Assembly: GCA_963845565.1 (NCBI GenBank)
Contig: CAWJSJ010000002.1
Location: 2,496,001-2,560,000 of the forward strand
Direction: 5' to 3'
Length of the DNA: 64,000 bases
DNA from: an uncultured Methylomirabilota bacterium
GTDB taxonomy: Bacteria > Methylomirabilota > Methylomirabilia > Methylomirabilales > 2-02-FULL-66-22
Part shown: positions 22,596-63,032 of the stretch, piece after piece
Layout of the letters: every line of letters begins with the position of its first letter
How positions within the stretch are numbered: position 1 is the first letter of the stretch
Notes under the pieces: model-generated
Seen by the model: the letters and a program-made list of their open reading frames with translations, nothing else
Database searches by the model: none
What the model was told of the DNA's origin: nothing
Position numbers and translations under genes: made by a program

Positions 22596-22709
22596 TTCTC
22601 TCTCCCAATTTTTCAAATGTCTCACGCCCTGCGTCTCGTCGTTCCGCTTACCCGAATTACGTGTGGTATTCAAGATCTCCTCGGGAATCCCGCACCGTAC
22701 GCCAGCCTT

Positions 22710-23993
22710 TCACTCCATGAGGAGCGCGGGGAGCCAGAGGCTGACGGCCGGCACGAAGGTGACCAGGAGTAGGACGATGACGTCGGCGATCAGGAACGGG
22801 ATGGACGCCCGGAAGATCGTGACGATGTCGAGCTTCGTGATCGTCGAAGCGACGTTCAGGCACATCCCCACGGGCGGCGTGACCAGGCCGATGGCCATGC
22901 CGACGATCAGGATGGCGCCGAACTGTATCGGGGAGACGCCGAGCGCCTTCATGGCCGGCATGAAGACCGGCGTGAGGAGGATGATCGCCGGGGCCACATC
23001 CACAAAGAACCCGACGAGCAGGATGATGACATCCAGGACGAGCAGGATGACCCAGAGCGGGAAGATCGAGGCCGATGAGCAAGTGCCGCCACCTGGTCCG
23101 GCACGCGCTCCAGCGCCAGGATCCAGGTGTACAGGGCCGGAGAACGCGGTGATGACCATCACATTGGCGCTGATCAGGATGATGCCGCGGAGCATCGGTG
23201 GGACGTGTCCGACTTCAAGCCGCGGAAGACAAGGTGCCCACGGCGAATGCGTAGAGGACACCCACGCCGGCGGCTTCGGTGGCGGTGGTCAGGCCGATGA
23301 CCACTGACCCGATCACGAAGACGGGCATCAGCAGCGGGAGGATACCGTTGTGCAGTCGGCTCAGGATCGCGGGACGGTGAATTGAATATCGCTTCGACGG
23401 GTAGCGCGCTTCGTCGAGATGATGCCGTTGATCGACATCTGTACCAGGCCGATGAGGATCAGACCGGGGATGGCGCCGGACAGGAAAAGCCGGCCGACCG
23501 ACTCCGAGGCGATGAAGGCGATAGATGACCATCGGGATGCTCGGGCGGGATGATCATTCCCGTTGGTGGACGCGGCCACGGTGATTCCGCCGGCGAATTC
23601 GCGCGAGTAGCCACGCCGCTCCATTTCGGGAATCAGGACGGAGCCGATCGAGGCCGCATCGGCCACGGACGACCCGGAGATGCCGCCAGATGATCATGCT
23701 GGACATGACGCAGACCATGCCCAGCCCACCCCGCAAGCCGCCCGACGAGGAGCATGCTGAAATCGATCAGCCGTGCGGTCAGCCCACCCTGGTTCATCAT
23801 CGCGCCCATGAGCATGAACAGGGGGAGGGCCAGCATGAGTTCCGTGTCCATTCCCGGAGAAGACGCGCTGTGGGAATCACCAGCAGGAGCCCCGGCTGGT
23901 ACGGACGAAGTAGAGCAGGCGGACAGGCCCAGCGCGTACGCGATGGGAGCCCCGCACCACGAGGACGGCCAGACCACCGAGCAGGATGAGCAT
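22710..23993 (-). CDS. dctM: TRAP transporter large permease, multiple frameshifts
   Basis: LLALPLFMLMGAMMNQGG, ADAASIGSVLIPEM, TATEAAGV, IGLVTPPVG spread over several frames. Confidence 0.8.
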
Positions 23994-24005
23994 GGGCGCC
24001 TCTTC

Positions 24006-24485
24006 TCACCGGCCGCGACACTCCTGCCGGGTATCGGCGAATCGCCAGCCAGAGGGCGTACAGGGCGACCAGCCCGCAACCGACGGGTACGCTCAAGAGC
24101 ACAACGCCTTGCGGGATTCGGAGGACGGGCGAGGGAAACTGACCGACCGAACGAATCCAGGGGATGCTCAGGATGACGACCAACCCGTGTCAGGCGCGAC
24201 CACGAGATAGATTGATCCGTCGCATCCAGCGCCGGGCCCGTGGCGGAAAGCGGTCCACGAACAGCGGGATGGCAATGTGCTCCCCCTTGGCAGAGCAACA
24301 CGGCGGCGCCGATGGCGAGGTGTAGATGAAGCAGAGACAGGGCGAATTCCTGTCCGCCGACGATGGTGGTGATGAAGAAAGTACCGCAGGATGACAAGGA
24401 CGATAATCGGCCACCGTGATGACGAGGAACAGATAACCGAGCAGGACCTCCAGAAAACGGGCCAGCTCGCGGCGAGACGACTCAT
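24006..24485 (-). CDS. dctQ: TRAP transporter small permease, frameshifted
   Basis: Between dctP and dctM; VILRYF, GEHIAI, SPVLRIP segments across frames. Confidence 0.7.
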
Positions 24486-25690: not shown

Positions 25691-26407
25691 CTATTTCTCC
25701 ATGGCCGGCTTCCACACCTTCCAGACGTTGCCAACGAGGTTCGGCCCAGGGGTGAGCGTCAGTTCCCCCGGCATCCAGCCTGCCGGCGTGGCCTCTTTGC
25801 CGCCCGAGGCCCGCACGTGTTGGTACGCTTGGATCTGGCGGACCGACTCGGCGAACTTGCGGCCCACCGGCGGGGTGAGTACTTCCATGGCCTGGATGAC
25901 TCCGTCCGGGTCGATGATGAAGCGACCCCGCAGTTCGATCCCTTGGCCTTCGTCATAGACCCCGAACGCCCGGCCGACATTGCCGGCCTGATCCGATGCC
26001 ATGTGGAAGGGGACGCCGCCGTCCACCATCTTCACCAGTTCGTGGTCGTTCCACATCTTGTGGACGAAATGGCTGTCCACACTGACGGAGATGACCTCCG
26101 CGCCCAGCTTCTGCAGGACAGGATACTTGTCGGCGACCGCCGACACTTCCGTCGCTCAGACAAAGGTGAAATCACCGGGGTAGAAGCACAGCAACACCCA
26201 TTTCCCCAGGTAGTCCGACAGCTTGACCGAGGTGAACCCGCCGCGGTAGTACGCCGGGGCGGAGAAGTCGGGAGCCTTCTGTCCTACGCGCGCAGTCACG
26301 ATTTTCTCCTCCTTCTTCGTCGGGGTCTCGGCGGATTGTGGCCCGCCAGTCTCCTGCCCCGCGACCGTCCCGGTCACGCGAGCGCAGCCTTGCGGTTGCT
26401 CTGCCAT
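25691..26407 (-). CDS. prxU: Selenocysteine-containing peroxiredoxin (AhpC-like PrxU); UGA at 26156-26158
   Basis: [15 protein letters not shown] in frame, at the peroxidatic Cys position of FYPxDFTFVCPTE; hairpin follows. Confidence 0.92.
26128..26145 (-). other. Candidate bacterial SECIS element of prxU
   Basis: TGTCGGC-GGTC-GCCGACA stem-loop starting 11 nt after UGA, G-containing loop. Confidence 0.7.
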
Positions 26408-26629: not shown

Positions 26630-26676
26630 TTGCGCATTTGCACCTTTGACAGTGGATCATGGTTGCGAGTCTGCAA
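26630..26676. promoter_or_regulatory. Tandem upstream activator sites
   Basis: TTGC-GCATTT-GCAC (26630) and perfect GGTTGC-GAGTCT-GCAACC (26661-26678); cores 33 bp apart. Confidence 0.6.
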
Positions 26677-28033
26677 CCGCGGGGGTACGGGGAATCTGCA
26701 AACGATGCTGCTTCATCTTCCGCCAAAGGGTGGTCTTGTGAATCCCCAGGGCCTTGGCGGCAGCCAGACGGTTCCAACCGTGGTGCCGCAGCGTCTCGAG
26801 GATGACGTGGGCCTCGAGGTCGTGCAGAGTGCTCGGGCCGGCCACCGGTGCGGATTGATCGGCGGGGCGGAGAGATTCCGGAAGGTGCTGCGGATGAATC
26901 ACGCCGCCGGGGCAGAGAATGAACGCGTGCTCGATGATGTTCTCGAGTTCGCGCACGTTTCCCGGATAGTCATGGGTCATCAGAATCCGCATGGTCTCCG
27001 GGGTCAGCCCCTCGATGTCTCTTCCGCGAAGCCGGCCGAACCGGGCGACGAAATGCTCGGCGAGGAGGGGGATATCCTCCCGCCGGTCGCGGAGCGGGGG
27101 AAGGGTGATGCGGACGATATTGATGCGGTAATACAGGTCTTGCCGGAACGTCCCCGCCTTCACGAGATCGGCAAGGCGCTTGTTGGAGGCTGTCACGATC
27201 CGGACGTCCGCTTTCACGGACTCGGTGCCGCCGAGCGGCTCGTAGGTCTTCTGCTCGAGCACGCGGAGGAGCCGCACCTGGAGGGCAGGGGATATGTCGC
27301 CGATCTCGTCGAGGAAAATGGTCCCGCCATCGGCCAGGGCGAAGCGTCCCGGCTTGTCCTTCCGCGCATCCGTGAAGGCGCCGGCCTTGTACCCGAAGAG
27401 CTCCGACTCCAGCAGGGTGTCGGGAAGCGCGCCACAGTTGACCGTCACCAGCGGCCCGGCCCGGCGAGGGCTCAACGCGTGGAGTGCTCGCGCCACCAGT
27501 TCCTTTCCGGTACCGCTTTCGCCCTCGATCAGCACCGTGCTGCTGCTCTCTGCAACGGCCGGCAGCATGGCGAAGATCCGCTGCATCGCCGGGCTCTTGC
27601 TGATGATGTCGGCAAACGTGTACTGGTGGGCGATCTCGGCACGCAGTTGCTCGACCAGCCGCAGGTCGCGAAACGTCTCGACCCCGCCCAGGATTTGGCC
27701 CCCGCGATCCTTGAGTACTGCGGTGCTCACGCTGATGGGCGCCCGATCGCCGTCCGATCGAAGAATATACACCTGGCGGTTCACCACCGGCCGCCCCGTG
27801 TGCATGGTTTCCTTCATGGCGCACTGGGCTTCACAAATGGATGCCCGGAAGACCTCGCAGCACGGCTGGCCTATGGCCTCGTGGCGGGGAACGCCCGTGA
27901 TCTGTTCGGCCGCACGATTGAAGGAGGTAATCCGGAATCCGTCGTCCACGGTGAACACCCCGTCGGCAACCGAATCCAGAATCACGGCCACCTCGTTGGA
28001 TGACAAGGCGGGATCTTTCTTGGTTATTCCCAT
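26657..28033 (-). CDS. Sigma54-dependent enhancer-binding protein (PAS-AAA+-Fis HTH)
   Basis: PAS with PCCEVF...IC...C; GESGTGKE, ESELFG, GAFTDA, FLDEIG, PGNVREL, HTH. Confidence 0.95.
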   Translation of the reverse strand: MGITKKDPALSSNEVAVILDSVADGVFTVDDGFRITSFNRAAEQITGVPRHEAIGQPCCEVFRASICEAQCAMKETMHTGRPVVNRQVYILRSDGDRAPISVSTAVLKDRGGQILGGVETFRDLRLVEQLRAEIAHQYTFADIISKSPAMQRIFAMLPAVAESSSTVLIEGESGTGKELVARALHALSPRRAGPLVTVNCGALPDTLLESELFGYKAGAFTDARKDKPGRFALADGGTIFLDEIGDISPALQVRLLRVLEQKTYEPLGGTESVKADVRIVTASNKRLADLVKAGTFRQDLYYRINIVRITLPPLRDRREDIPLLAEHFVARFGRLRGRDIEGLTPETMRILMTHDYPGNVRELENIIEHAFILCPGGVIHPQHLPESLRPADQSAPVAGPSTLHDLEAHVILETLRHHGWNRLAAAKALGIHKTTLWRKMKQHRLQIPRTPAVADSQP

Positions 28034-28243
28034 ACCAATGCCTCATTGCTAAGGCTGGCGCCGAGACCCGCTACGAGGGCTTCTCGGCCGGCCGGCAACC
28101 GACTGATGCGATTAGGATTCTAGCCGAATCCACCCCTCCGCGCCACAACGCTCTCTAACATACCCTGAGCCGCAGCCCGGACGAATGCTCGATTCTTCGT
28201 AGAGATCATCCACAGGCTCGTAGGGGAGAAACGCTGAGGATCT

Positions 28244-28259
28244 TGGCACCGCCTGTGCA
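28244..28259 (+). promoter_or_regulatory. Sigma54 -24/-12 promoter candidate for the respiratory operon
   Basis: TGGCACCGCCTGTGCA (GG-N10-GC), about 340 nt before ATG 28600. Confidence 0.55.
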
Positions 28260-28599
28260 GCGCGTTTTGCGTGATAACACTTCCTCATAGATGTCTATCG
28301 GCCAGCAAGATGCAGTCCATAAAGCAGCCTCCGAGAATTCTGCGCCGGGGGACGGAAAGGATTGTCGCCAGCCATTGTTCGAAACCTCTTGATGGTGAAT
28401 CCGGTCCAAGCTTTCCTGGTATCGACTGAAAAAGTCGAGACGGGTTGCGTCCGGGTGGCTCGCCGGACCGTTGATGGGCCTGCTGGGTGCGCGGCGCGAC
28501 GCGATCCGGCGCCACTCGGCCGGAACACGAACGGGCGAAGCGGTCGGGAGCGAGCACATTCGGCGCGTGGGGCCGGAAGGACATGAAAGAGGAGAGGGC

Positions 28600-29574
28600 A
28601 TGCATTTGAATCGACGAACGCTGCTGAAACTGGGGATTGCGGCGACGTCGGGGGTTGGCGCTCCCGCCCTGGCGGCCCAAGAAGCCCAGACGGCAAAGGA
28701 GAGACCGGCGTCCTCCCCGGACTATGTGGGCGTCCTGGTGGATACCACGCTCTGCATCGGGTGCCGAAAGTGCGAGGAGGCCTGCAACCGCCGGAACCAT
28801 CTTCCCCGCACGGCCGAATCCTTCTCCGACAGGGATGTCCTCCGCTCCTTCCGTCGGCCTTCCGAAACCGCCTTTACGGTCGTGAACCAGTTCCCGGGGC
28901 GTCCATCCCCGGATCAGGCCGGTTTGCCCCAGACCTACTGCAAGGTCCAGTGCATGCACTGCCTCTACCCGTCCTGCGTTTCGGCGTGCATCGTGGGCGC
29001 GCTGACCAAGTCCGCCGACGGCGCCGTGGTCTACAACCCCACCATCTGCATCGGGTGCCGATACTGCCAGGTTGCCTGTCCCTTCGAGATCCCGGCTTAC
29101 GAATTCCACGTTGCGCTCACCCCTCGAGTGCGCAAGTGCGAATTCTGCGCCGACCAGGCCAAAGGGACCGGCGCCGATCCTGCGTGCGCCGCCTCCTGTC
29201 CCACCGAGGCGCTGGTCTTCGGCCGCCGGGCGGACCTGGTCGCTATGGCGAAGGACCGTCTGAAGCGACGCCCGGACCGTTACGTCAATCACCTCTACGG
29301 CGAAACCGAAGTGGGCGGGACCTCCTGGCTGTACCTGACCGGGAGGCCGGTCCGGGAGGTCGGCCTGCTGGACCTCCCCGACACCCCTCCTCCAAAGTTG
29401 ACCGAAGCCATCCAGCACGGGATTTTCGAGTACGGCATCATCCCCGTGGCATTTTTCGGTCTGCTGGCCGGGATCATGTGGCGCAACCACCGGAAGCATC
29501 CGGACGACACCCCGCACGCGGGGGAAGAGCACGACACCCCTTCCGCGCACACGCCCGAGGGAGGTGGGAAATGA
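28600..29574 (+). CDS. Tat-exported 4x[4Fe-4S] protein (HybA/HmcB/NrfC family) with C-terminal TM anchor
   Basis: NRRTLLK Tat motif; CIGCRKCEEAC, CMHCLYPSCVSAC, CIGCRYCQVACP, KCEFC...CAASCP. Confidence 0.9.
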   Translation: MHLNRRTLLKLGIAATSGVGAPALAAQEAQTAKERPASSPDYVGVLVDTTLCIGCRKCEEACNRRNHLPRTAESFSDRDVLRSFRRPSETAFTVVNQFPGRPSPDQAGLPQTYCKVQCMHCLYPSCVSACIVGALTKSADGAVVYNPTICIGCRYCQVACPFEIPAYEFHVALTPRVRKCEFCADQAKGTGADPACAASCPTEALVFGRRADLVAMAKDRLKRRPDRYVNHLYGETEVGGTSWLYLTGRPVREVGLLDLPDTPPPKLTEAIQHGIFEYGIIPVAFFGLLAGIMWRNHRKHPDDTPHAGEEHDTPSAHTPEGGGK

Positions 29575-32500
29575 CCCCCGCAATCCACAACGACCAGCCG
29601 CATCGGATCGAAAAGCCCTTCTTCACCTTCGGCACCTTGACCCTCTTGATCTTCATGGGCGTTGGCTTCTCTTTCGGCGTCACGCGCGTGCTCCTCGGGC
29701 TGGGCTCGGTGACAAATCTGGACAACCACAATCCCTGGGGTATCTGGATCTCCTTCGACGTGGCGTGCGGCGTCGCCCTGGCGGCCGGCGGGTTCACGAC
29801 CGGCGCCCTGGTCGACATCTTCGGCCGGAAGAAATACCTGCCCCTGCTCCGTCCCGCCCTCCTCACGGCGTTTCTGGGTTATCTCTGGGTCGTCATCGCG
29901 CTGAGCTTCGACCTGGGCCGGTACTGGAATCTCTGGCGTCCGATCTTCAACTGGCAGGGCAACTCCGTACTCTTCGAGGTAGGCATGTGCGTTACGGTCT
30001 ACCTCATCGTCCTGAGCGTGGAAATGAGCCCGTACGTGCTGGAAGGGCTGAAGGCGCGGATCGACGAGGGGGCCTGGGGAGCCATTCTGCTGCGGCGTTT
30101 CGAGAAGCCCCTTCTGGCGTTGGCTGCCGGGGTCCGGATCGTCCTCCCGCTGTTCATCGTCGCCGGCGTGGTGCTCTCTTTCATGCATCAGTCCTCCCTG
30201 GGATCGCTGATGCTCATCGCCCCCACCAAGCTGAGCCCCCTGTGGAACACCCCGATCCTCCCCCTCCTCTTCCTCCTGTCGGCGATCATGGTGGGTTTCC
30301 CGATGGTGATCTTGGAATCCATCTACGCCAACATCAGCTTTGGCCGTAGCCCGGAGATGGAACTCCTCACGCCGTTGGCCCGCATCGTTCCGTGGTTCGT
30401 CGGCACCTACGGCGTGGTGAAGATCGGCGACCTTGTCGTCCGCTACGGTCAGTTGAATTTTCTCGATCACCCCGCGGCCACGACGTCCCTGGTCGTCGAG
30501 ATCCTCTTGGGTATAGTCGCCCCGTTCCTGCTCTTCCTCAACAAGGCGGTTCGCCGGTCCGAGGGATGGCTCTTCTTCACCGTATCCTTGATCATCTTCG
30601 GCGTGGTGCTCAACCGCATCAACGTCTTCCTGGTCGGCTACAACCCGCCGTACTCAGCCAAGGCGTACTTCCCGTCGATCGGCGAGATCGCGATGACGGT
30701 GGCCATCGTCTCCAGCATTCTGTTCTGCTACCGGTTCTTTGTGACGTTCTTCCCCATCCTGCCGGGTTACGTGCCTGCGACGGAAACCCAGCTCGCCCGG
30801 ATGCGCGTGGAGCGGGAGCGGACCGTCAATCCCTTCTGGACCTGGGTGATACGCGGGAACCGCCATCGCCTTCCTCCTGGGTTTCATCGCGTTGTACAAC
30901 CTCGTGCATATCCGAGGCGCACCAAGCGACCGAGAAAACGGTCGAGGAGATCCAGCGCGTCAAGGCGGAGCTGCCGGCTCGTGCCGGACGTCCGTGGCGG
31001 GTACGGCCTACCCTCAGCGGCCCGAAGGCGTACAGGAATTATTACCTGCTGAACAGCACGGTGCTCGGCGCCAAGTCGGACGACTACGAGCCGGTGCGGT
31101 TCTCCCATCGCATCCACGACGAGCTGACCGGGGGGGATTGCGGGGTCTGCCACCATCGCTACGCGATCGGCCGAGGAAGACCGCGTGGGGCTGGATATCA
31201 AGGACCTGCACACGGCGATGGACATCAAGCTGGGCGGCGCCCTGTTCGGCTTGCCATGACGACATGGCGAAGAACCCGCCGCAGAGCTGCGCCCGCTGCC
31301 ATGGGCTGCCCAACGAAGCGGATGCCCCCTCGCGCATCGGCCTCAAAGGGGCCTATCACCGCCAGTGCATCGGGTGCCACGAGCGCCAGCTCAAGCCGGC
31401 GTTCGCGCCCACCGCATGCGCCTCCTGCCACCATCCCTGGACGCCGGACCACTCCACGCTGGTGGACTTCACCGGCAAGCCCAGTCCGCAGGACGTGACC
31501 CGGAACTGCTTGAGCTGCCACCCGAAGGTGGGACAGGACGTGTTGAAGACGGCCCACTGGAACTGGAAGGGATACTCGCCTACGCTGAAGGGATACGAGC
31601 ACCGGATCGACATCAGCCTGACGCATGATGGTCAACAACTCCTGCATCGCCATCGGCCCCAACCTCCAGGAGTGCGCCTCCTGCCACATCGGCTATGGCT
31701 GGGTGGACGCGAAATTCGACTTCACCGACCCGACCAACATCGATTGCCTTGTCTGCCATGACACGACCGGAACGTACCGGAAGGACCCCGGCAAGGGCGG
31801 GCTCCCCGACCCGTCGCTGGATCTGGCCGCGATCGCGAAAAAGGTGGGACGGCCCTCCCGGCAGGCCTGCGGTTCCTGCCACTTTCGCAAGCGGCGGAGC
31901 CCCGTACGCCAAGCATGGGGATCTGGAACCCGCGCTGGCCGACCCGCCGGCGGACTTCGACATGCACATGGGCACGCTCAAGATGCGCTGCCAGGATTGC
32001 CATGCGACCACCGAGCACCGGATTGCGGGGATGTCGATGAGCGCCCCCGCCGTCGAGGGCCGCGTCCGCTGCGAAAAGTGCCACGGGCAAACGCCTCACG
32101 GGGTGGCGGGCATGCTGAGCCGCCATCTGGACGACCACGTCAGGGCCGTGGCGTGCGAGACCTGTCACATTCCCTTCATTGCGAAGGCGGCGCCGACCCT
32201 CTTGCGTCGGGATTATTCGCAAGGCGGGCCAGGACCGTCCGCCAGCGGCTGGACCAGCACGGGATGCCGCAGTACGACAAGAAATTCGGGACCTTGACCT
32301 GGGGCAAGCACCTCGTGCCCACGTACCTCTGGTACGACGGAACCCGCAGCGCCTCGCTGGTGGGCGACACGATCGACCCATCCTCTGCCGTGGTTCTCAA
32401 CGCCCCCGTCGGGGAGAAGCGGAACCCGGCGGCGCGCATCTTTCCGTTCCAGGTCCACGCGGCGGTTCAGCCCTACGACACCGAGAACAAGATCCTCGCC

Positions 32501-32875
32501 CTGCCCAAGCTCTTGGACGGCTATTGGGCCGACTTCGACTGGTCGAAGGCCATTACCAGCGGGATGAAGCAGGTGGGACTCCCCTACTCAGGGAAGTACG
32601 GTTTCGTGGAGACCAAGATGTATTCTTCCATCCACCACGAGGTGGTCCCCGCCACGAAAGCTCTCGGCTGTTCCGATTGCCACAGCCTGGAGGCTATCAC
32701 GTGCACGCGTTGCCACAAGAACGCGAAGGAGATGGACCTTCCCGCGCACCGGCGTGCGGTCTATCCGGAGGCGACAAATCGGATCGATTTCAAAGGCTTG
32801 GGCTACCCCGACGATCCGGCCCACGTAGGCGGCCGGTTCTACATCGGCATCGGTCGAGGCGCGCCGCCGAAATAG
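29571..32875 (+). CDS. Apparent fusion of NrfD/HybB quinol-interacting membrane domain + TM + class III cytochrome c domain + octaheme tetrathionate-reductase-like domain; about 8 indels in this assembly
   Basis: PWGIWISFDVACGVALAAGGF, DLGRYWN, SVLFEV, MHQSSLGS; then PVRFSHRIH, GLKGAYHRQCIGCH; then HWNW, NNSC, KHGDL, PTYLWYDG, IHHEV; 14 CxxCH after frame repair. Confidence 0.7.
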
Positions 32876-33259
32876 CGTCGCGTTCCGGACTTTCGAATTG
32901 GCAATACCTTTAGACGGAGCTCCGACCCAGGAGGCCTTTATCGCTCGCCGGGAAGGTGGAATGAGTCGCTTGATCGCGAAATTTCCTGGACCTTGAAGGA
33001 GTCGGAAATCCTTGGAGAGTGGCGGGGGGGGTAAGCGATCCTATCGCGCGGTCTCCAGGGTCGGCGGCCTCGAGTGTCCGGAGTCGTCCCTCCGCTCAGC
33101 TGGGCGGATCGCCCCATCAAGCCGCTGGCATTGGTTGCTGCTTTAGGCTAACATGCGGATCGCTCGGTCAGGGCAGGCGGGCCGTCGCCCGACCCCAGAG
33201 GGCTTTCATCCGCATCGCCCGACGCTCACGAGAGTTCCTCGGGTCCAGAGGATGCTGGC

Positions 33260-34768
33260 ATGCGAGCCAAGATAAGCTACAAACTCATTGTCGCGGTGGG
33301 CAGCGTGGCGCTGATCATCATCGGGTTTTTCTCCTATGGGATTCTGAGCGCCCATCGACGGCAACTCATCGGCGAGGTCCGACGCAGCGCGCACCAACTG
33401 AGCGAGACGGTGAAAAGCAGCACGCATTACGACATGCTGTTGAATCAGCGGGAGGCGGTTTATCGCATCATCACCACCATCGGCAAGCAGGACGGCATCA
33501 AGAAAGTCCGGATCTTCAACAAGGACGGCGCGATCAGTTTTTCCACGGATCATCTTGATGTCGGCCAGATGGTCGACAAGCGAGCGGAAGCGTGCTATGC
33601 CTGCCATGCGGTGGATCAACCCCTGGAGCGATTGCCCATTCCCGACCGTACGCGCATATTCCAACTCCCCGGTTCCGGGCGCGTTCTCGGCATTATCAGT
33701 CCGATATATAACGAACCGAGCTGCTGGCAAAGCAGCTGTCATGCGCACGAGCCGTCAAAAAAAGTCTTGGGCGTGCTGGATATCTCGATGTCGTTGGATG
33801 ACGTCGATCGCGACATGGAATCCAGCCAAAAGCGCCTACTGCTGTTCGGCATCGTCGCCATTGGCGCCGTGAGTGGCATGATTTTTCTCCTGGTCGATCG
33901 GATCGTGCTCAAGCCGGTGAATGAAATTGCGGCGGCGACGCGCAAGGTAGCTGCCGGCGATCTGCATTACAAGATTGCGTTGACCAAACGGGATGAAATC
34001 GGGATCTTGGCCGACTCCTTCAATCAGATGACGCAAAAACTCTCCGAGGCGCAGCGGCAGATTTATCAATCAGAGAAACTGGCGGCGGTTGGGCAATTGG
34101 CGGCGGGGGTGGCACATGAAATCAATAACCCACTCACCGGAGTGTTGAGCTACGCCAGCTTCCTCCTTAAACGCGCTGAAGACCGGCCCGAGTTCAAGGA
34201 AGACTTGGAAGTGATCGTGCGGGAAACCAAGCGGTGCCGGGAGATCGTGAAAGGCCTGTTGGATTTCGCCCGACAGTTGCCGCCGGAAAAGCAGGCCTGT
34301 GACATCACGGAAATCGTGGAACGCGCGGTTCGTATCGTGCAAATCCAGCTTGCCGCGCATCGCGTGGAGCTGCGGAGGAATCTGCGCACCGACCTACCGA
34401 AGATCCACGTCGACGCGAATCAGCTCCAGCAGGTTCTCGTCAATCTCCTGCTCAACGCCAATGCCGCTATCGGCGACGGTGGGGGCACGATTACCTTAGT
34501 GACCGATTTGGCGGTAGAAGAGGGCGGGGCGCGGAACCAGACCCAAGGCATCGAAGTCAGGGTGAGCGACACCGGCTGCGGCATTCCGCCGGCGAATCTC
34601 CAAAGAATCTTCGATCCGTTCTTCTCCACTAAGGGGGCAAAGGGTACCGGCCTTGGACTGGCGGTCGCGTGGGGCATCGTCGAGAAACACAACGGACGCA
34701 TTGAGGTCGAGAGCGACGTCGGCAAAGGTACAACGTTTCGCGTGCTCTTGCCGATCGGCGAGCAGTAG
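33260..34768 (+). CDS. Sensor histidine kinase with heme c-type periplasmic domain, HAMP, HisKA, HATPase
   Basis: Two TMs; CYACH and CWQSSCH; AHEINNPL; GTGLGL. Confidence 0.92.
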   Translation: MRAKISYKLIVAVGSVALIIIGFFSYGILSAHRRQLIGEVRRSAHQLSETVKSSTHYDMLLNQREAVYRIITTIGKQDGIKKVRIFNKDGAISFSTDHLDVGQMVDKRAEACYACHAVDQPLERLPIPDRTRIFQLPGSGRVLGIISPIYNEPSCWQSSCHAHEPSKKVLGVLDISMSLDDVDRDMESSQKRLLLFGIVAIGAVSGMIFLLVDRIVLKPVNEIAAATRKVAAGDLHYKIALTKRDEIGILADSFNQMTQKLSEAQRQIYQSEKLAAVGQLAAGVAHEINNPLTGVLSYASFLLKRAEDRPEFKEDLEVIVRETKRCREIVKGLLDFARQLPPEKQACDITEIVERAVRIVQIQLAAHRVELRRNLRTDLPKIHVDANQLQQVLVNLLLNANAAIGDGGGTITLVTDLAVEEGGARNQTQGIEVRVSDTGCGIPPANLQRIFDPFFSTKGAKGTGLGLAVAWGIVEKHNGRIEVESDVGKGTTFRVLLPIGEQ

Positions 34769-34926
34769 ACTGCAGTTCAGTGAGACAACGGATGCACGGA
34801 GTATGTCCGTCCTTCGTTGATCGTCGCGCGCCAGGCAGCGTGTTCCGTGTACGCCACGTGTCAGCATCGGAACAGGGGCAACGACGACTGAGTCTCCGGC
34901 GTCGCGCGTGTTGAGGGGAGGCAATT

Positions 34927-36081
34927 ATGGTTCCGATCCTCGTGGTCGTGATGATCGTGGTGTTCGTCGTCATCAACGTGGTGGTTCGGTTGGTGATGGA
35001 TCGGATGCGTGAAGCCAAGGCGCGCAAGGAACGGCTCGAAGCGCTGGATATCGGCCTGCGTTTAGATTTTGCGGATGAAGCGCCATCGCTCAAGCGGGTC
35101 GAGGTGGCCAAGCCGCTCGCGCGTATTCTTGCGGTGGACGACGAAACCATCGTGCTCGACAGTTTCCGGAAGATCCTCGTGGCCGCCGGCTACGCGATCG
35201 ACACGGTGGAAAGCGGGCGCGAGGCGCTGGGCCTCGTGCAGAAGCACACGTACGATTTTGTGTTCACCGACTTGAAAATGCCGGAGATGGATGGGTTGGA
35301 TGTGGTGAAGGGCGTCAAGCACTACAGCGCCGAGTCGGATGTCGTGGTCATCACCGGCTACGCCACCATTGAATCCGCGGTGAATGCGATGAAGTGGGGT
35401 GCCATGGATTATGTGCAAAAACCCTTCACCGAAGACGAACTGGTGGAATTCACCAAGAAGTGCCTGTTTCGCCGGCAAGATCGCGAACACAAACGGCTCT
35501 CCTCCACGGTGCACGTAGCCACGACGGACCGCCCGCCGGCTCACGAATTCGGTCTGCCGGGCGGGGTGTTCTTTTCCCCCGGCCATGTGTGGGCGAATGT
35601 CACCATCCCGGGCATGGTGCGTGTAGGTTTGGACGATTTTGCGCGCAAGATGATCGGGCGCATCGATGCGCTCGAATTGCCCGCCAAGGGCGCGACGATC
35701 AAGAAGGGGGAGTGTCTCTTCAGTATTCGGCAAGGCGGGCGTGCCGCCGTTTTCCATGCGCCGATCTCCGGGACCGTGCATGAGGTGAACGCCGACCTGC
35801 CCAAGCACCTGGAATGGCTGGAAAGCCGTCCCTACGAGCAGGGGTGGGTGTGCTCGATGAAACCCGAGCATCTGGAGGACGAGCTGAGGCAGTTGCATAT
35901 CGGCGAGAAAGCGGCGGAATGGTATCGGGCGGAGATCGCACGCCTCCAGGCGATGCTGGGAGCGGCACATGGCGAAACCGCCGCCCCGCCGGCTCCAACC
36001 GGACGGCTGGTCGAAGGCCAGTTGGAGGCGACCGACGACGCCACGTGGAGCAAGTTCACGCAGGCCTTCTTAGGGGCGTAG
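34927..36081 (+). CDS. Membrane-anchored response-regulator receiver fused to GcvH-like domain
   Basis: N-terminal TM; VDDE, TDLKMPEMDG, KPF; then GHVWA, RVGLDDFA, APISGTVHEVN, PYEQGW. Confidence 0.88.
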   Translation: MVPILVVVMIVVFVVINVVVRLVMDRMREAKARKERLEALDIGLRLDFADEAPSLKRVEVAKPLARILAVDDETIVLDSFRKILVAAGYAIDTVESGREALGLVQKHTYDFVFTDLKMPEMDGLDVVKGVKHYSAESDVVVITGYATIESAVNAMKWGAMDYVQKPFTEDELVEFTKKCLFRRQDREHKRLSSTVHVATTDRPPAHEFGLPGGVFFSPGHVWANVTIPGMVRVGLDDFARKMIGRIDALELPAKGATIKKGECLFSIRQGGRAAVFHAPISGTVHEVNADLPKHLEWLESRPYEQGWVCSMKPEHLEDELRQLHIGEKAAEWYRAEIARLQAMLGAAHGETAAPPAPTGRLVEGQLEATDDATWSKFTQAFLGA

Positions 36082-36407
36082 GTGCGTTTGCGCTCGCGGG
36101 CGGAATCGCCGTTTCGCCCGCCCGCGTTCGCCCCGGACCGTGCCGCATGGAGCGGGCGCTCCGCTGCCTCCCCAATTTTCCGAATCCCCGGGAGTATCCC
36201 CGACGCCTGAAGATCCCGGCCTGTCTTGTGCCCCGCCCTGGTGAGTCGGAGTTATCCTGCGTCCGTGGCCTCGATGCTTCCCGAGCAGCGCCTTCTCCTG
36301 CCTATAGCGGTACCGAGAGGGATCCGTGTGACGAAGGGCCGAATCCTTTCCCGCGGTTCGGGATCATAACTGCAAAGAGGCGTCCGAATTCACGGGAGGA
36401 ATCGCCC

Positions 36408-36605
36408 ATGCCGATCTTCGAGTACCAGTGCACCCAATGCGGGACAACGTTCGAGCAGTTCACGCAGCGCGCCAAGGACGGGCAGGTTCCTGCGTGTCCG
36501 AGATGCGGTGCCGACCGGGCGGAGCGGGTTCTCTCGGGCTTCGCCAGGCAGGCAGCGACGGGGAGCGGATGCGGATCGTCATCCGGCGGCGGGTGAGGGG
36601 TCTAA
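36408..36605 (+). CDS. FmdB-family zinc-ribbon protein; ends at 36596 (TGA), or at 36605 if UGA is Sec
   Basis: MPIFEYQCTQCG...CPRCG...VLSGF...CGSSSGGG-TGA-GGG-GTC-TAA; GGAGG RBS. Confidence 0.85.
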
Positions 36606-36831
36606 TTCCGGGGCCGGGAGCCCCGAGGCGCGAGATGGAACCCCTATTCGGTAGAGTGCGACCTGTTGAGGACGAGGAGACCCCTTTGGCTCGACGGAAT
36701 GAGGCACGACGCCGCCCGCGTCCAGACCGTGGCATCGTCGCTCTTTCCTGACCAACGGAGGCGCTGCATTGACTTTTGTCGGCCGTTCGCACTAGGCTAG
36801 CAGCAACTATTCGCTTCGAGGAGGTGCCTTC

Positions 36832-38199
36832 ATGCTGCGACGGCTCTCGCCGGTGGTGTTGCTGCTGTGTGGTCTGCTCGTCCCGACGCCATCCTGGACC
36901 GGTACCGATCACAAGGACCTCGTGTCCGGGCCGTTCAGGACGGGGCCGGAGGTGACCGAGACGTGTCTCGGCTGCCACGAGCAGCAGGCCAAGGACTTCA
37001 TGAAGACGGTCCACTGGACCTGGCAGGAGAAGCAACAGGTGCCCGGCAGAGGGCAGATGAGCATCGGAAAGCTCAACCTGATCAACAATTTCTGCATTGC
37101 GCTGCCCGCCAACTGGCCGCGCTGTACCAGTTGTCACGCCGGCTACGGCTGGAAGGACGCGTCGTTCAAGTTCGATGACCCGAAGAACGTGGATTGCCTG
37201 GTGTGCCACGACACCACCGGGACCTACGCGAAGTCCCCGGCCGGTGCGGGGAATCCGGATCCCAAGGTGGATCTCGTCAAGGTGGCGCAGAGTGTCGGAA
37301 AGCCCACCCGACAGAATTGCGGCACATGCCACTTCTTCGGCGGGGGCGGCGATCACGTCAAGCACGGGGACCTGGACAGCTCGCTCCTGAAGCCGAGCCG
37401 CGCGGTGGACGTGCACATGGCGGACCCGGCCCCGGGCATGACCTGCCAGGACTGCCACAAGACGAAAGAGCACCAGATTCCCGGGGAGTCGATGGCGGTG
37501 TCCCTCGGGAAGGGGGCGCGGGTCTCCTGTCTCGACTGCCACGGCGAGACCCCGCACAAGATCCCGACCTACAACCGGCACACCAAGCGGGTGGCCTGTG
37601 AGACCTGCCACGTCCCCGTGTTCGCCAAGGGGCTGCCGACCAAGGTCTGGTGGGACTGGTCGAAGGCGGGGCAGGACCGGCCGCCGGCCAAGGACAAGCA
37701 CGGCCTCGAGACCTACGTCAAGATCAAGGGGGAGTTCAAGTGGGAGAAGGACGTCCCGCCGACCTATCTCTGGTACAACGGCGAGACGGCGCGTTACCTG
37801 CTGGGGGATACGATCGATCCGTCGAAGGTGGTTGCGCTGAATCGGCCGCTGGGCGACCGGAAGGATGTCAAGGCCCGGATCATGCCGTTCAAGGTCATGC
37901 GCGGGAAGCAGCCGTATGACAAGCAGTTGAAGACGATCGCGGTCCCACACCTGTTCGGCGGCTACTGGAATCACTTCGACTGGAACCGGGCCATCGCCGA
38001 CGGCAACAAGGCGGCAGGCATCCCCTACAGCGGCCAGTTCGACTGGGCCGAGACGGTGATGTACTGGAAGGTGAACCACATGGTGGCGCCGAAGCAGGCG
38101 GCTTTTCGGTGCACTGCATGCCATCGCGACAAAGGGGGCATCTTGAACTGGAAGGCGCTGGGATATGCCGGCGACCCGGCGCAGGAGCCAGGCAAGTAA
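36832..38199 (+). CDS. otr: Octaheme c-type cytochrome, tetrathionate reductase (OTR) family
   Basis: Signal peptide; 8 CxxCH; HWTW, GK...INNFC, GGGGDHVKHGD, PTYLWYNG, NHMVAP. Confidence 0.92.
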   Translation: MLRRLSPVVLLLCGLLVPTPSWTGTDHKDLVSGPFRTGPEVTETCLGCHEQQAKDFMKTVHWTWQEKQQVPGRGQMSIGKLNLINNFCIALPANWPRCTSCHAGYGWKDASFKFDDPKNVDCLVCHDTTGTYAKSPAGAGNPDPKVDLVKVAQSVGKPTRQNCGTCHFFGGGGDHVKHGDLDSSLLKPSRAVDVHMADPAPGMTCQDCHKTKEHQIPGESMAVSLGKGARVSCLDCHGETPHKIPTYNRHTKRVACETCHVPVFAKGLPTKVWWDWSKAGQDRPPAKDKHGLETYVKIKGEFKWEKDVPPTYLWYNGETARYLLGDTIDPSKVVALNRPLGDRKDVKARIMPFKVMRGKQPYDKQLKTIAVPHLFGGYWNHFDWNRAIADGNKAAGIPYSGQFDWAETVMYWKVNHMVAPKQAAFRCTACHRDKGGILNWKALGYAGDPAQEPGK

Positions 38200-38279: not shown

Positions 38280-38317
38280 CCGACCGTCGTCGCGGGTTGA
38301 CGACGGTCGGCTTTTTT
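38280..38317 (+). terminator. Rho-independent terminator
   Basis: CCGACCGTCGTC-loop-GACGACGGTCGG followed by CTTTTTT. Confidence 0.85.
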
Positions 38318-41007: not shown

Positions 41008-41132
41008 CAGGCTGCTGAAAAAGGCCCATCTGCAGCGTTGGCCCGCCTCGCCACTCGCTGCGGCGTACCTGGAGTACGCCTCGCTCGGGCTACGGCGTTC
41101 CGCCTTGCATCTGGGCCTTTTTGAGCAGCCTG
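41008..41132. repeat. ~125 bp palindromic interspersed repeat (MITE/REP-like), copy 1
   Basis: CAGGCTGCTGAAAAAGGCCCA...TGGGCCTTTTTGAGCAGCCTG terminal inverted repeat; internal GGCGTAC-CTGGA-GTACGCC; second copy at 62845. Confidence 0.85.
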
Positions 41133-41168
41133 GGCGAAAGCAATGCTTCGGGCAGACCGTGCGAAGCT

Positions 41169-62052: not shown

Positions 62053-62844
62053 ATGCCGAAACTTGCTGCCAACTTGACCATGCTGTTCAACGACAAGCCG
62101 TTCCTGGAGCGCTTCGCCCTGGCGAAGCAGGCCGGCTTCAAGTACGTGGAGTTCCTGCACCCGTACGAGGCGCCGGCCGAGAAGGTCAAGGAGGCGCTGG
62201 ATACGAACGGCCTCCAGGTCATCAACTTCAACCTGCCCAGCGGCAACAACTGGGCCGGCGGCGACCGCGGCATCGGAGCCAGCCCGAACCGGGTGGAGGA
62301 GTTCCGGGCCGGCATCAAGGCGGCCGTCGAGTACGCCAAGATCCTGAAGACCCCGCGCGTGAACTGCCTGGTGGGGAAGATGGTCCCCGGCTTCTCCCGC
62401 GAGCAGCACATCAAGACGGCGGTGGAGAACCTGAAGATGTCCGCGGATGCGCTGGGGGCGATCGGCGTCAAGCAGATCATCGAGCACATCAACCCCTTCG
62501 ACATCCCGGGCTTCGTGCTCAATCGCGTCTCCGAGGTCCTCGACGTCATCGCCCAGGTGGGCCGGTCCAACGTCTTCGTCCAGTACGACATCTACCATGC
62601 GGCGCGGACCGAGGGGAACCTCACGCTGACGCTCCGCGAGCAGTTCGCCAAGATCGACCACATCCAGGTCGCGGACACCCCCGGGCGGAACCAGCCGGGT
62701 ACGGGCGAGATCAATTTCCCGTTCCTGTTCGCCGAGATGGACAAGCTGGGTTACCAGGGGTACGTCGGGCTGGAATACGTTCCGAAGCCGGACACGCTGA
62801 GCTCGTTTGGGTGGATCAAGCAGATGGGTTGCCAGTTGGCCTGA
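62053..62844 (+). CDS. hyi: Hydroxypyruvate isomerase
   Basis: AANLTMLF, YDIYH, HIQVADTPGR..PGTGEIN, GLEYVP. Confidence 0.92.
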   Translation: MPKLAANLTMLFNDKPFLERFALAKQAGFKYVEFLHPYEAPAEKVKEALDTNGLQVINFNLPSGNNWAGGDRGIGASPNRVEEFRAGIKAAVEYAKILKTPRVNCLVGKMVPGFSREQHIKTAVENLKMSADALGAIGVKQIIEHINPFDIPGFVLNRVSEVLDVIAQVGRSNVFVQYDIYHAARTEGNLTLTLREQFAKIDHIQVADTPGRNQPGTGEINFPFLFAEMDKLGYQGYVGLEYVPKPDTLSSFGWIKQMGCQLA

Positions 62845-62968
62845 CGGCTGCCGAAAAAGGCCCATCTGCGGCGTTGGCGTGCTTGCGCGCTCGTTGCGGC
62901 GTACCTGGAGTACGCCTCACTCGGCGCATCGCGCGCCGCCTTGCATCTGGGCCTTTTTGAGCAGCCTG
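62845..62968. repeat. ~125 bp palindromic interspersed repeat, copy 2
   Basis: Same termini and core as 41008-41132. Confidence 0.85.
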
Positions 62969-63032
62969 GGTGAGGGCGTGTTCTTGAGGAACCTGTTAAC
63001 GTATGAACCGCAAAAACGAAGGAGTGAGAGAC

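Follow-up and report, generated by a model that had tools for sequence, protein, structure and literature searches.

The DNA analysed here is a 64,000-nucleotide stretch (the window) of contig CAWJSJ010000002.1, positions 2,496,001 to 2,560,000, from an uncultured Methylomirabilota bacterium. It carries six genes on one strand, followed by a terminator-like hairpin: an iron-sulfur (FeS) protein exported by the twin-arginine (Tat) pathway, a fusion of an NrfD/HybB-type membrane domain with c3-like and octaheme tetrathionate reductase (OTR)-fold cytochromes, a histidine kinase, a receiver-GcvH fusion, a zinc ribbon and a stand-alone OTR. From comparisons of sequence, the FeS protein and the fusion are judged, at a probability of roughly 0.55, to form a two-subunit electron conduit between quinone and periplasm similar to Hmc and Nhc, in which the OTR-fold end would be non-catalytic. 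New elements are the composite nature of the locus, the four positions that its cassette takes within one genus (one of them behind mtrAB) and the way in which Cys64 is kept or lost together with heme II.

The fusion family is common in uncultured bacteria of soil, wetland and sediment. Databases name these proteins 'tetrathionate reductase family' or 'hydrogenase cytochrome b', and studies of metagenome-assembled genomes (MAGs) may thus take a Lys-less protein without a hydrogenase as a sign of sulfur, nitrogen or hydrogen respiration. The Lys-bearing, Lys-less and heme-II-less members moreover provide a graded natural series for studying the change from multiheme enzyme to wire, and this series bears on the in vivo role of OTR-fold proteins.

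The quinone module and its OTR-fold domain

The FeS protein contains a twin-arginine leader, 17 cysteines in a four-cluster pattern and a C-terminal transmembrane helix. Its best profiles are NF045715 HmcB (316 bits, cut-off 420) and NF008134 HybA (262.8 bits, borderline at a cut-off of 263). The fusion consists of a ten-helix NrfD/HybB-type quinone domain, an 11th transmembrane helix, a 5-heme c3-like part and a 9-heme OTR-fold domain. The AlphaFold model of its intact 1,097-amino-acid relative P0001 (mean predicted local distance difference test, pLDDT, 71.8) has ten membrane helices with an eleventh leading into the cytochrome, and it matches both ActC and the OTR structure 1SP3 (TM-score 0.88). 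In the NrfD part, residues D63, D114, S132, E136, H206, S208 and R349 are present and vary little or not at all across 102 aligned fusions. They correspond, by motif rather than by direct alignment, to the HybB/NhcC/QrcD set given in Table 2 of PMC8076601. Judged by sequence, the two membrane subunits fall into the HybB/HmcC/QrcD branch.

The likeness to Hmc (HmcABC core) and Nhc (NhcABCD) of Desulfovibrio, to Qrc and to HybAB extends to the ten-helix NrfD, the quinone and proton residues of QrcD/HybB/HmcC type and the four-cluster FeS partner. The c3-type hemes are nearest to domain IV of HmcA and to the nine-heme cytochrome c (NhcA). Unlike the known systems, the window pair falls below the HmcB, HmcC and HybB cut-offs (HmcC 281 bits against 550; HybB equivalog 320 against 450), as does the match to HmcA (57 against 400); it has no HmcD/E/F or hydrogenase, its host lacks Dsr, and it bears the OTR-fold extension. 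Separate HmcA/NhcA, HmcD/E/F or NhcD genes do not recur across the 51 loci from other species that were compared, many of them short and 26 of at least 20 kb.

An unfused module of a Tat-exported, tail-anchored FeS protein, a HybB-like quinol oxidase and an OTR-family cytochrome was described bioinformatically by Gallego-Parrilla et al. (2024; PMC10924467). In the window, too, a tail-anchored Tat FeS gene stands directly 5' of a HybB-like gene with an OTR-family cytochrome, here fused. The components and their order are alike, and neither arrangement has conserved flanking genes; the window cytochrome differs in being fused via the 11th helix, in its extra 5-heme c3 part and ninth heme, and in lacking Lys56. 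The fusion is a variant of this known module, and Table S3 of that paper may list fused cases. An earlier note on this DNA had not recognised the complex as characterised, which holds for its biochemistry, as the published module is itself biochemically uncharacterised, but not for the arrangement, which was already on record in unfused form.

When longer proteins related to the NrfD part were sought, 456 were retrieved, and 115 of the 120 listed measure 1,000-1,120 amino acids. Among 114 relatives of 1,050-1,120 amino acids, 14 CxxCH motifs are found in 92 and 13 in the other 22. Intact relatives of about 1,097 amino acids are thus common and establish the fusion as real, although it is split in the window assembly. 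NrfD was also seen fused to c3-type hemes alone (L099 8609-10444 and L106 8805-10679, each with 6 motifs, and L043-L045); these c3-only fusions are likely an intermediate toward the 14-heme fusion, and in two congeners they adjoin dsrMKJOP-like genes.

In OTR, heme II is ligated by Lys56 (PMC3769277). The fused domain passes the TIGR04315 profile (P0001, 469 bits, cut-off 375) and shares the fold and eight matching motifs with the Shewanella oneidensis OTR (1SP3); it differs in being membrane-bound, in its ninth heme and in the loss of Lys56 and Asp150, which are replaced in the window by Leu and Pro. Over 115 fusions the Lys56 position holds L in 99, R in 6, K in 3 and other residues in 7. 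Lys56 is kept in 103 of 116 non-fusion OTR-family domains, a control drawn from 50%-identity representatives (149 proteins yielding 119 alignable domains, of which 3 fusion-like ones were set apart). Position 150 is never D in the fusions, but it is D in only 64 of the control domains and so makes a weaker marker than Lys56. Both D150 and K153 have an active-site role in OTR. The ninth heme motif and an extra His849 are invariant in 115/115 fusions, and 21 of the 115 have lost both heme II cysteines while keeping the other heme motifs. The scarcity of lysine in fusions as against non-fusion domains, together with a sister clade that lost heme II, argues for a wire. The fused domain as a canonical terminal reductase, as first proposed, is not upheld.

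A tree of 68 rows was built (FastTree, midpoint root, local supports only, no bootstrap). Lys-bearing fusions of Myxococcota and Planctomycetota are basal in a 40-row fusion group, and a nested 36-row clade shows many different Lys56 replacements. The window's group, with Leu, Cys64 and heme II, is sister to the heme-II-less group, and Cys64 is variable in basal members of the same clade. Lys56 is retained in the NrfD-cytochrome fusions P0248, L050, L028-L030, L042 and L051; P0248 and L050 cluster with stand-alone OTRs, a hint of a second, independent fusion event. Heme-II-less fusions adjoin multiheme cytochromes with a cytochrome b domain (L015 6885-8837; L020 13443-17723), and these neighbours are, by their predicted domains, electron-transfer rather than catalytic proteins.

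A described parallel is MmcA of Methanosarcina acetivorans, likewise OTR-derived, which lost the catalytic heme and lysine and serves as a conduit on a membrane complex (bioRxiv 2023.04.20.537704). MmcA is archaeal, heptaheme and tied to Rnf, whereas the window protein keeps the heme II motif and Cys64; the heme-II-less sister clade is the closer parallel.

Composition of the locus

The six genes and the terminator proposed in the earlier note were all found where it had placed them (Table 1), and the stretch contains no molybdoenzyme or hydrogenase gene, as it had also held. Gaps of 384, 158, 326 and 235 nt separate genes of the set, so the six cannot be taken as one operon.

Table 1. Features of the locus in window coordinates.
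Feature	Position	Strand	Evidence
Tat-exported, tail-anchored 4x[4Fe-4S] protein, HmcB/HybA-like, 324 aa	28600..29574	+	Profiles, RR leader, Cys pattern, transmembrane helix 275-293
Fusion gene, ~1,097 aa: NrfD/HybB-type + c3-like + OTR-fold	29571..32875	+	Intact relative P0001, register map
Leu codon at the OTR Lys56 position	31618..31620	+	Sequence, alignment to 1SP3
Cys64-equivalent (31643-31645) and heme II motif CASCH (31673-31687), both retained	31643..31687	+	Sequence
Membrane histidine kinase: periplasmic single-Cache with CYACH 112 and CWQSSCH 155, HAMP, HisKA, HATPase	33260..34768	+	Pfam
Membrane-anchored receiver-GcvH-fold fusion	34927..36081	+	PF00072 + PF01597, transmembrane helix 2-20
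FmdB-family zinc ribbon	36408..36596	+	TIGR02605, 60.8 bits against cut-off 31.3
Stand-alone intact OTR-family octaheme cytochrome	36832..38199	+	TIGR04315, 608.7 bits against 375
Intrinsic-terminator-like hairpin	38280..38317	+	13 pairs, 9 GC, stem 38280-38310, T6 tail
Four-gene cassette (approximate extent); no such cassette at this site in two congeners	28156..36210	+	Congener alignment
Divergent PAS + sigma-54 activator, resident here	26657..28033	-	Pfam; adjoins OTR in congeners, FeS gene in L012 and L051
Sigma-54-like promoter motif 5' of the FeS gene (weak lead)	28244..28259	+	10/12 consensus positions

Comparison of neighbourhoods separated a conserved core from its variable surroundings. 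The FeS gene lies directly 5' of the fusion or NrfD gene in 47 of the 51 loci (three of the four misses are cut by contig ends), and the OTR fold is fused in 46. The core is thus conserved without a fixed catalytic partner, which argues for a conduit, and the HybA/HybB-type pair wired to multihemes without a molybdoenzyme or hydrogenase, as first described, is a conserved arrangement. Close neighbours were less regular: 9 loci have a close kinase, 11 a close receiver-GcvH and one (L012) an intact stand-alone OTR. Of the 26 loci of at least 20 kb, 6 include the kinase and none the stand-alone OTR. Besides kinase and receiver, no other gene family is common around the core.

At the level of whole genomes, 26 of 47 fusion genomes have the fused domain itself as their single OTR-family match, which again favours a conduit. 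A full-length second OTR at 46-81% identity is found in 9/47 (the 8 inspected keep Lys56), and a close kinase (66% or more) in 13/50.

Within the genus, the fusion is present in 4 of 21 genomes, each time at another site. The entire cassette of G059 follows mtrA-mtrB co-directionally after a gap of 178 nt, a position that also speaks for a conduit; this mtrAB lies at L093 13630-17000 (G059:C42), with the MtrB match in three pieces. In G056 the FeS-fusion pair occupies a site that is empty in the window's genome, and the kinase and receiver are found a few kb from mtrAB. In two congeners, separate contigs hold the OTR unit and the fusion. At the site itself, L095 aligns to 26715-28155 and then to 36339-36622, with 218 nt between. 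In L063 the regulator, zinc ribbon, OTR and thiM stand together without the cassette, an arrangement also seen in G056 and G008/G051, where the regulator is the PAS-sigma-54 gene. The zinc ribbon travels with the stand-alone OTR and not with the cassette. By these alignments the locus is composite, made of a four-gene cassette and a separate OTR unit; around the cassette, no target duplication and no ends of an insertion sequence or other mobile element were found. The six genes as one conserved unit are rejected, given the single nearby OTR among 51 loci and the congeners with an OTR unit but no cassette. The neighbourhood check suggested by the earlier note therefore bore out the FeS-fusion core but not the co-occurrence of all six genes.

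Eight other relatives have an unfused FeS and NrfD set with a sigma-54 regulator, accompanied by the kinase (7) or a GcvH-fold gene (8), and two of them show a small triheme cytochrome gene. This suggests that the regulators accompany the quinone module and not the OTR. The cassette of L096-L098 and L100-L105 was seen to hold a di-heme Cache kinase, a sigma-54 regulator, a small Cys-rich protein, a membrane-anchored GcvH-fold protein, a triheme c7 cytochrome, an FeS protein and an unfused NrfD.

The stand-alone gene encodes a full OTR-family member with eight CxxCH motifs, for which catalysis is predicted from its residues. It matches 1SP3 over the full length (E 9.5e-166) and, in that alignment, keeps Lys56 (37069-37071), Cys64, Asp150 and Lys153; a Cys at heme II of OTR is given in a figure legend of bioRxiv 2023.04.20.537704. 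Its origin as a copy of the fused domain is rejected, since the two fall in separate clades at about 43-47% identity. What OTR does in the cell is unsettled (PMC12949373): deletion of otr left tetrathionate respiration unaffected in Shewanella ANA-3 (PMC12949373), in sediment Acidobacteriota, otr transcript levels increased with tetrathionate (PMC8528874), and tetrathionate reduction in vitro was seen for a Beggiatoaceae homolog (PMC6449678).

Electron path and competing explanations

Under the conduit reading, electrons would pass between periplasmic partners and menaquinone via the predicted 14 hemes and four [4Fe-4S] clusters, and the OTR-fold end, lacking the catalytic lysine, would act as a wire or store instead of a terminal enzyme. 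QrcD reduces menaquinone with cytoplasmic protons, HybB and HmcC share its residues, and the branch acts preferably as a quinone reductase and is probably electrogenic (PMC6303296). By analogy with QrcD, HybB and HmcC, flow from cytochrome to menaquinone with cytoplasmic proton uptake, and hence energy-conserving, is slightly favoured over the opposite; the quinol-to-octaheme direction taken as the default in the earlier note does not agree with the reported preference of the branch. Flow would be reversible at the expense of the proton-motive force, which quinol oxidation in this branch requires (PMC6303296). The hemes of MmcA span -100 to -450 mV, a range that its authors call similar to that of OTR (bioRxiv 2023.04.20.537704), and with such potentials cytochrome-to-quinone would be the downhill direction. 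The partners are expected to be host-dependent; candidates here are the intact OTR encoded nearby and MtrAB, the porin-cytochrome conduit of this genome. The di-heme Cache kinase likely senses a gas, for instance NO, or the redox state of the periplasm, and phosphorylates the membrane-tethered receiver-GcvH, which, having no DNA-binding domain, would act on proteins.

The window's genome (G000; 98.7% complete, 6.4% contaminated) encodes group 3/4-type hydrogenases, as their large subunits appear by neighbours and family hits, complex I, alternative complex III with a heme-copper oxidase, cytochrome c maturation genes, MtrAB and several other multiheme proteins. The NrfA and Dsr/Sir families have no match in it. 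The group-1 hydrogenase small subunit (PF14720) has no match in G000 nor in 33/50 fusion genomes, so the pair is not a set of orphan hydrogenase-2 subunits, the outcome that the earlier note had named as fatal to its proposal.

Several observations weigh against the conduit. The P0001 model carries no hemes, and its c3 part has a pLDDT below 50; the genomes compared are MAGs and incomplete, and related ones do not count as independent. No periplasmic donor was found in G000, which lacks a group-1 hydrogenase and whose inspected molybdoenzymes look cytoplasmic. MtrB matches above the cut-off occur in only 11/50 fusion genomes, so the link to that conduit is not general. Furthermore, the window's own group retains heme II and keeps Lys/Arg153 in 84/85 members; Cys64 is kept in 82/85 Lys-less fusions with heme II and in 0/21 without it, and activity is known from NrfA variants that lack the Lys ligand (PMC12285233). 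Retention of heme II, Cys64 and Lys/Arg153 is compatible with a remodelled active site.

Accordingly, the fused domain could be an enzyme with a rebuilt site, heme II being held by the motif His and Cys64 and the reaction coupled to quinone in one polypeptide. The chemistry might be TsdA/SoxA-like sulfur chemistry or that of a His-ligated nitrite or sulfite site. Besides tracking heme II, the Cys64-equivalent is the sole conserved non-motif Cys in the domain; His/Cys-ligated hemes form the TsdA active site (PMC5146829), and NrfA of CxxCH type works (PMC12285233). The explanation is nonetheless doubtful, as Cys64 varies in basal members of the clade, pocket positions 63, 150 and 153 vary, and the sister clade dispenses with heme II altogether. 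A bolder version, in which the OTR scaffold was rebuilt into a His/Cys-ligated, TsdA-like site, would make the protein a molybdenum-free, quinone-coupled, one-polypeptide sulfur oxidoreductase switched by the kinase. This is speculative and rather improbable; under it, Acidobacteriota of soil and sediment would widely carry such a sulfur oxidoreductase, the switch would work post-translationally from the di-heme Cache kinase via a membrane-tethered lipoyl-less H-fold protein, and the family would record a path from a Lys-ligated enzyme to a Cys-type enzyme to a pure wire.

It is also unlikely that the complex oxidises quinol as the dedicated donor of the adjacent intact OTR, with nitrite, hydroxylamine, sulfite or tetrathionate as acceptor. 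The neighbouring OTR keeps all site residues, the genome is without an NrfA or Dsr match, and the unfused module often includes an OTR (PMC10924467); moreover, the PAS-sigma-54 family flanks the FeS gene of the module in L012 and L051, and L012 has an intact OTR within 7 kb. Yet a stand-alone OTR is a neighbour in 1/51 loci only, a full-length one of at least 46% identity occurs in 9/47 genomes, and two congeners keep the OTR unit apart from the fusion. Quinol oxidation in this branch would draw on the proton-motive force (PMC6303296), and OTR did not support tetrathionate respiration in vivo (PMC12949373).

The role of a canonical OTR, serving as the terminal catalytic module, is very improbable for the fused domain here despite its TIGR04315 score and retained fold, because Lys56 is Leu, Asp150 is Pro and K153 is the only conserved lysine nearby; such a role may hold for the basal fusions of Myxococcota, Planctomycetota and Desulfobulbia, which keep Lys56.

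Regulators, assembly state and other observations

Both heme-type motifs of the kinase occur in 18/18 homolog hits. The model of its sensor (pLDDT 84.5) is a single Cache domain with the WalK sensor as best match (Z 15.5, root-mean-square deviation 2.1 over 136 residues), and GSU0935 was hit at E 2.8e-4. Among profiles, PF11845 gave no hit, PF21563 reached 22.7 bits (cut-off 27) and PF09984 22.5 (cut-off 22.1); atlas matches of the sensor point to PF21563 (15-24% of members), and a PDB sequence search with the sensor domain returned nothing significant. In sCache_heme sensors (DUF3365/Tll0287, GSU0582/GSU0935), the heme motif precedes the last strand and one signalling member bound NO (PMC12889525). 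The kinase shares with them the periplasmic single Cache, a c-heme-type motif, HAMP and the kinase part, and its second motif sits at the position described; it differs in the motif form CX3-4CH, an earlier second CxxCH and the missing PF11845 hit. The heme motifs of the 'heme-sensing two-component module' of the earlier note are thus confirmed, but 'heme-containing' fits better, and the partner lacks a DNA-binding domain. Another kinase, which has a single CxxCH and matches PF21563 weakly, was seen at L059 14025-15614 (G000:C2, ~718-719.6 kb), where it adjoins a 13-heme cytochrome b/c gene and MtrAB of the window's genome.

The receiver-GcvH protein has an N-terminal transmembrane helix, and its phospho-Asp is present in 120/120 homologs. 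At the lipoyl position of the GcvH fold it has Gly270; among the 112 readable of 120 homologs this residue is Gly in 106 and Lys in 0, while the genome's true GcvH (L061) has the lipoyl lysine. A lipoyl carrier role is therefore rejected, and the search for a DNA-binding domain in the protein found none. The literature found does not describe an output module of this type, a receiver tethered to the membrane and carrying a lipoyl-less H fold. Neither the fusion nor the receiver-GcvH was the subject of any paper found, most subscription journals being beyond reach, and the accessible parts of PMC8840924, PMC11492766, PMC10564751 and bioRxiv 2022.02.24.481543 contain nothing on the fusion.

The sigma-54-like motif upstream of the FeS gene has a score reached by 6/500 shuffles and was not found upstream in three congeners. 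A conserved sigma-54 promoter at this place was rejected, as a score of 10 is reached in just 4/48 related upstream regions; sigma-70 promoters were not found. RNA run X20 covered parts of the stretch as contigs only, with no expression evident. A contig joining 28324 to 33249, without the FeS and fusion genes, had a depth of 2.4 and was too weak for use.

The fusion is not one open reading frame in the window. Against P0001 it breaks into ten register segments with a net +11 nt, within about 30.85-32.25 kb. Nine of the ten are 94-100% identical to P0001 and the remaining one 68%; the NrfD part is 99% identical. The correct coding path is free of stops, the net shifts are all positive and all 14 motifs are intact. 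Relatives' short-read contigs lack the extra bases at 31238, 31623-5, 32222-4 and 32241, one short-read contig has 9 gaps over 30741-31983, and similar breaks occur at other places in other long-read MAGs (L037, L041, L049). The frame breaks, about 11 single-base insertions, are probably assembly errors. The broken part is only about 90-93% like the short-read contigs, against more than 99% for its flanks, and may be a poorly polished or mosaic stretch. No source reads of this strain were found (best share 0.42). A decaying pseudogene, and with it a locus non-functional in this strain, would fit some 11 frame breaks in 1.4 kb and the divergence of the broken part, but is highly improbable given the stop-free path, the intact heme motifs, the positive shifts, the identity of all segments save one and the comparable breaks elsewhere, both in the three MAGs and in the window's transporter operon at 22.6-24.4 kb. 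In the latter, membrane-subunit genes (22600-24400, minus strand; TRAP-like by eye) are split over several frames, likely through another cluster of assembly indels.

Two further observations concern the rest of the window. A peroxiredoxin gene (25691-26407, minus strand) has an in-frame TGA at the active-site position (…DFTFV-stop-ATEV…) and likely encodes the selenoprotein PrxU; in Desulfosarcina ovata, prxU and a sigma-54 regulator lie beside the unfused module (PMC10924467). An intergenic repeat of ~130-150 nt is found at 41008-41140 and 62838-62973 of the window, with many copies in the genome and in congeners.

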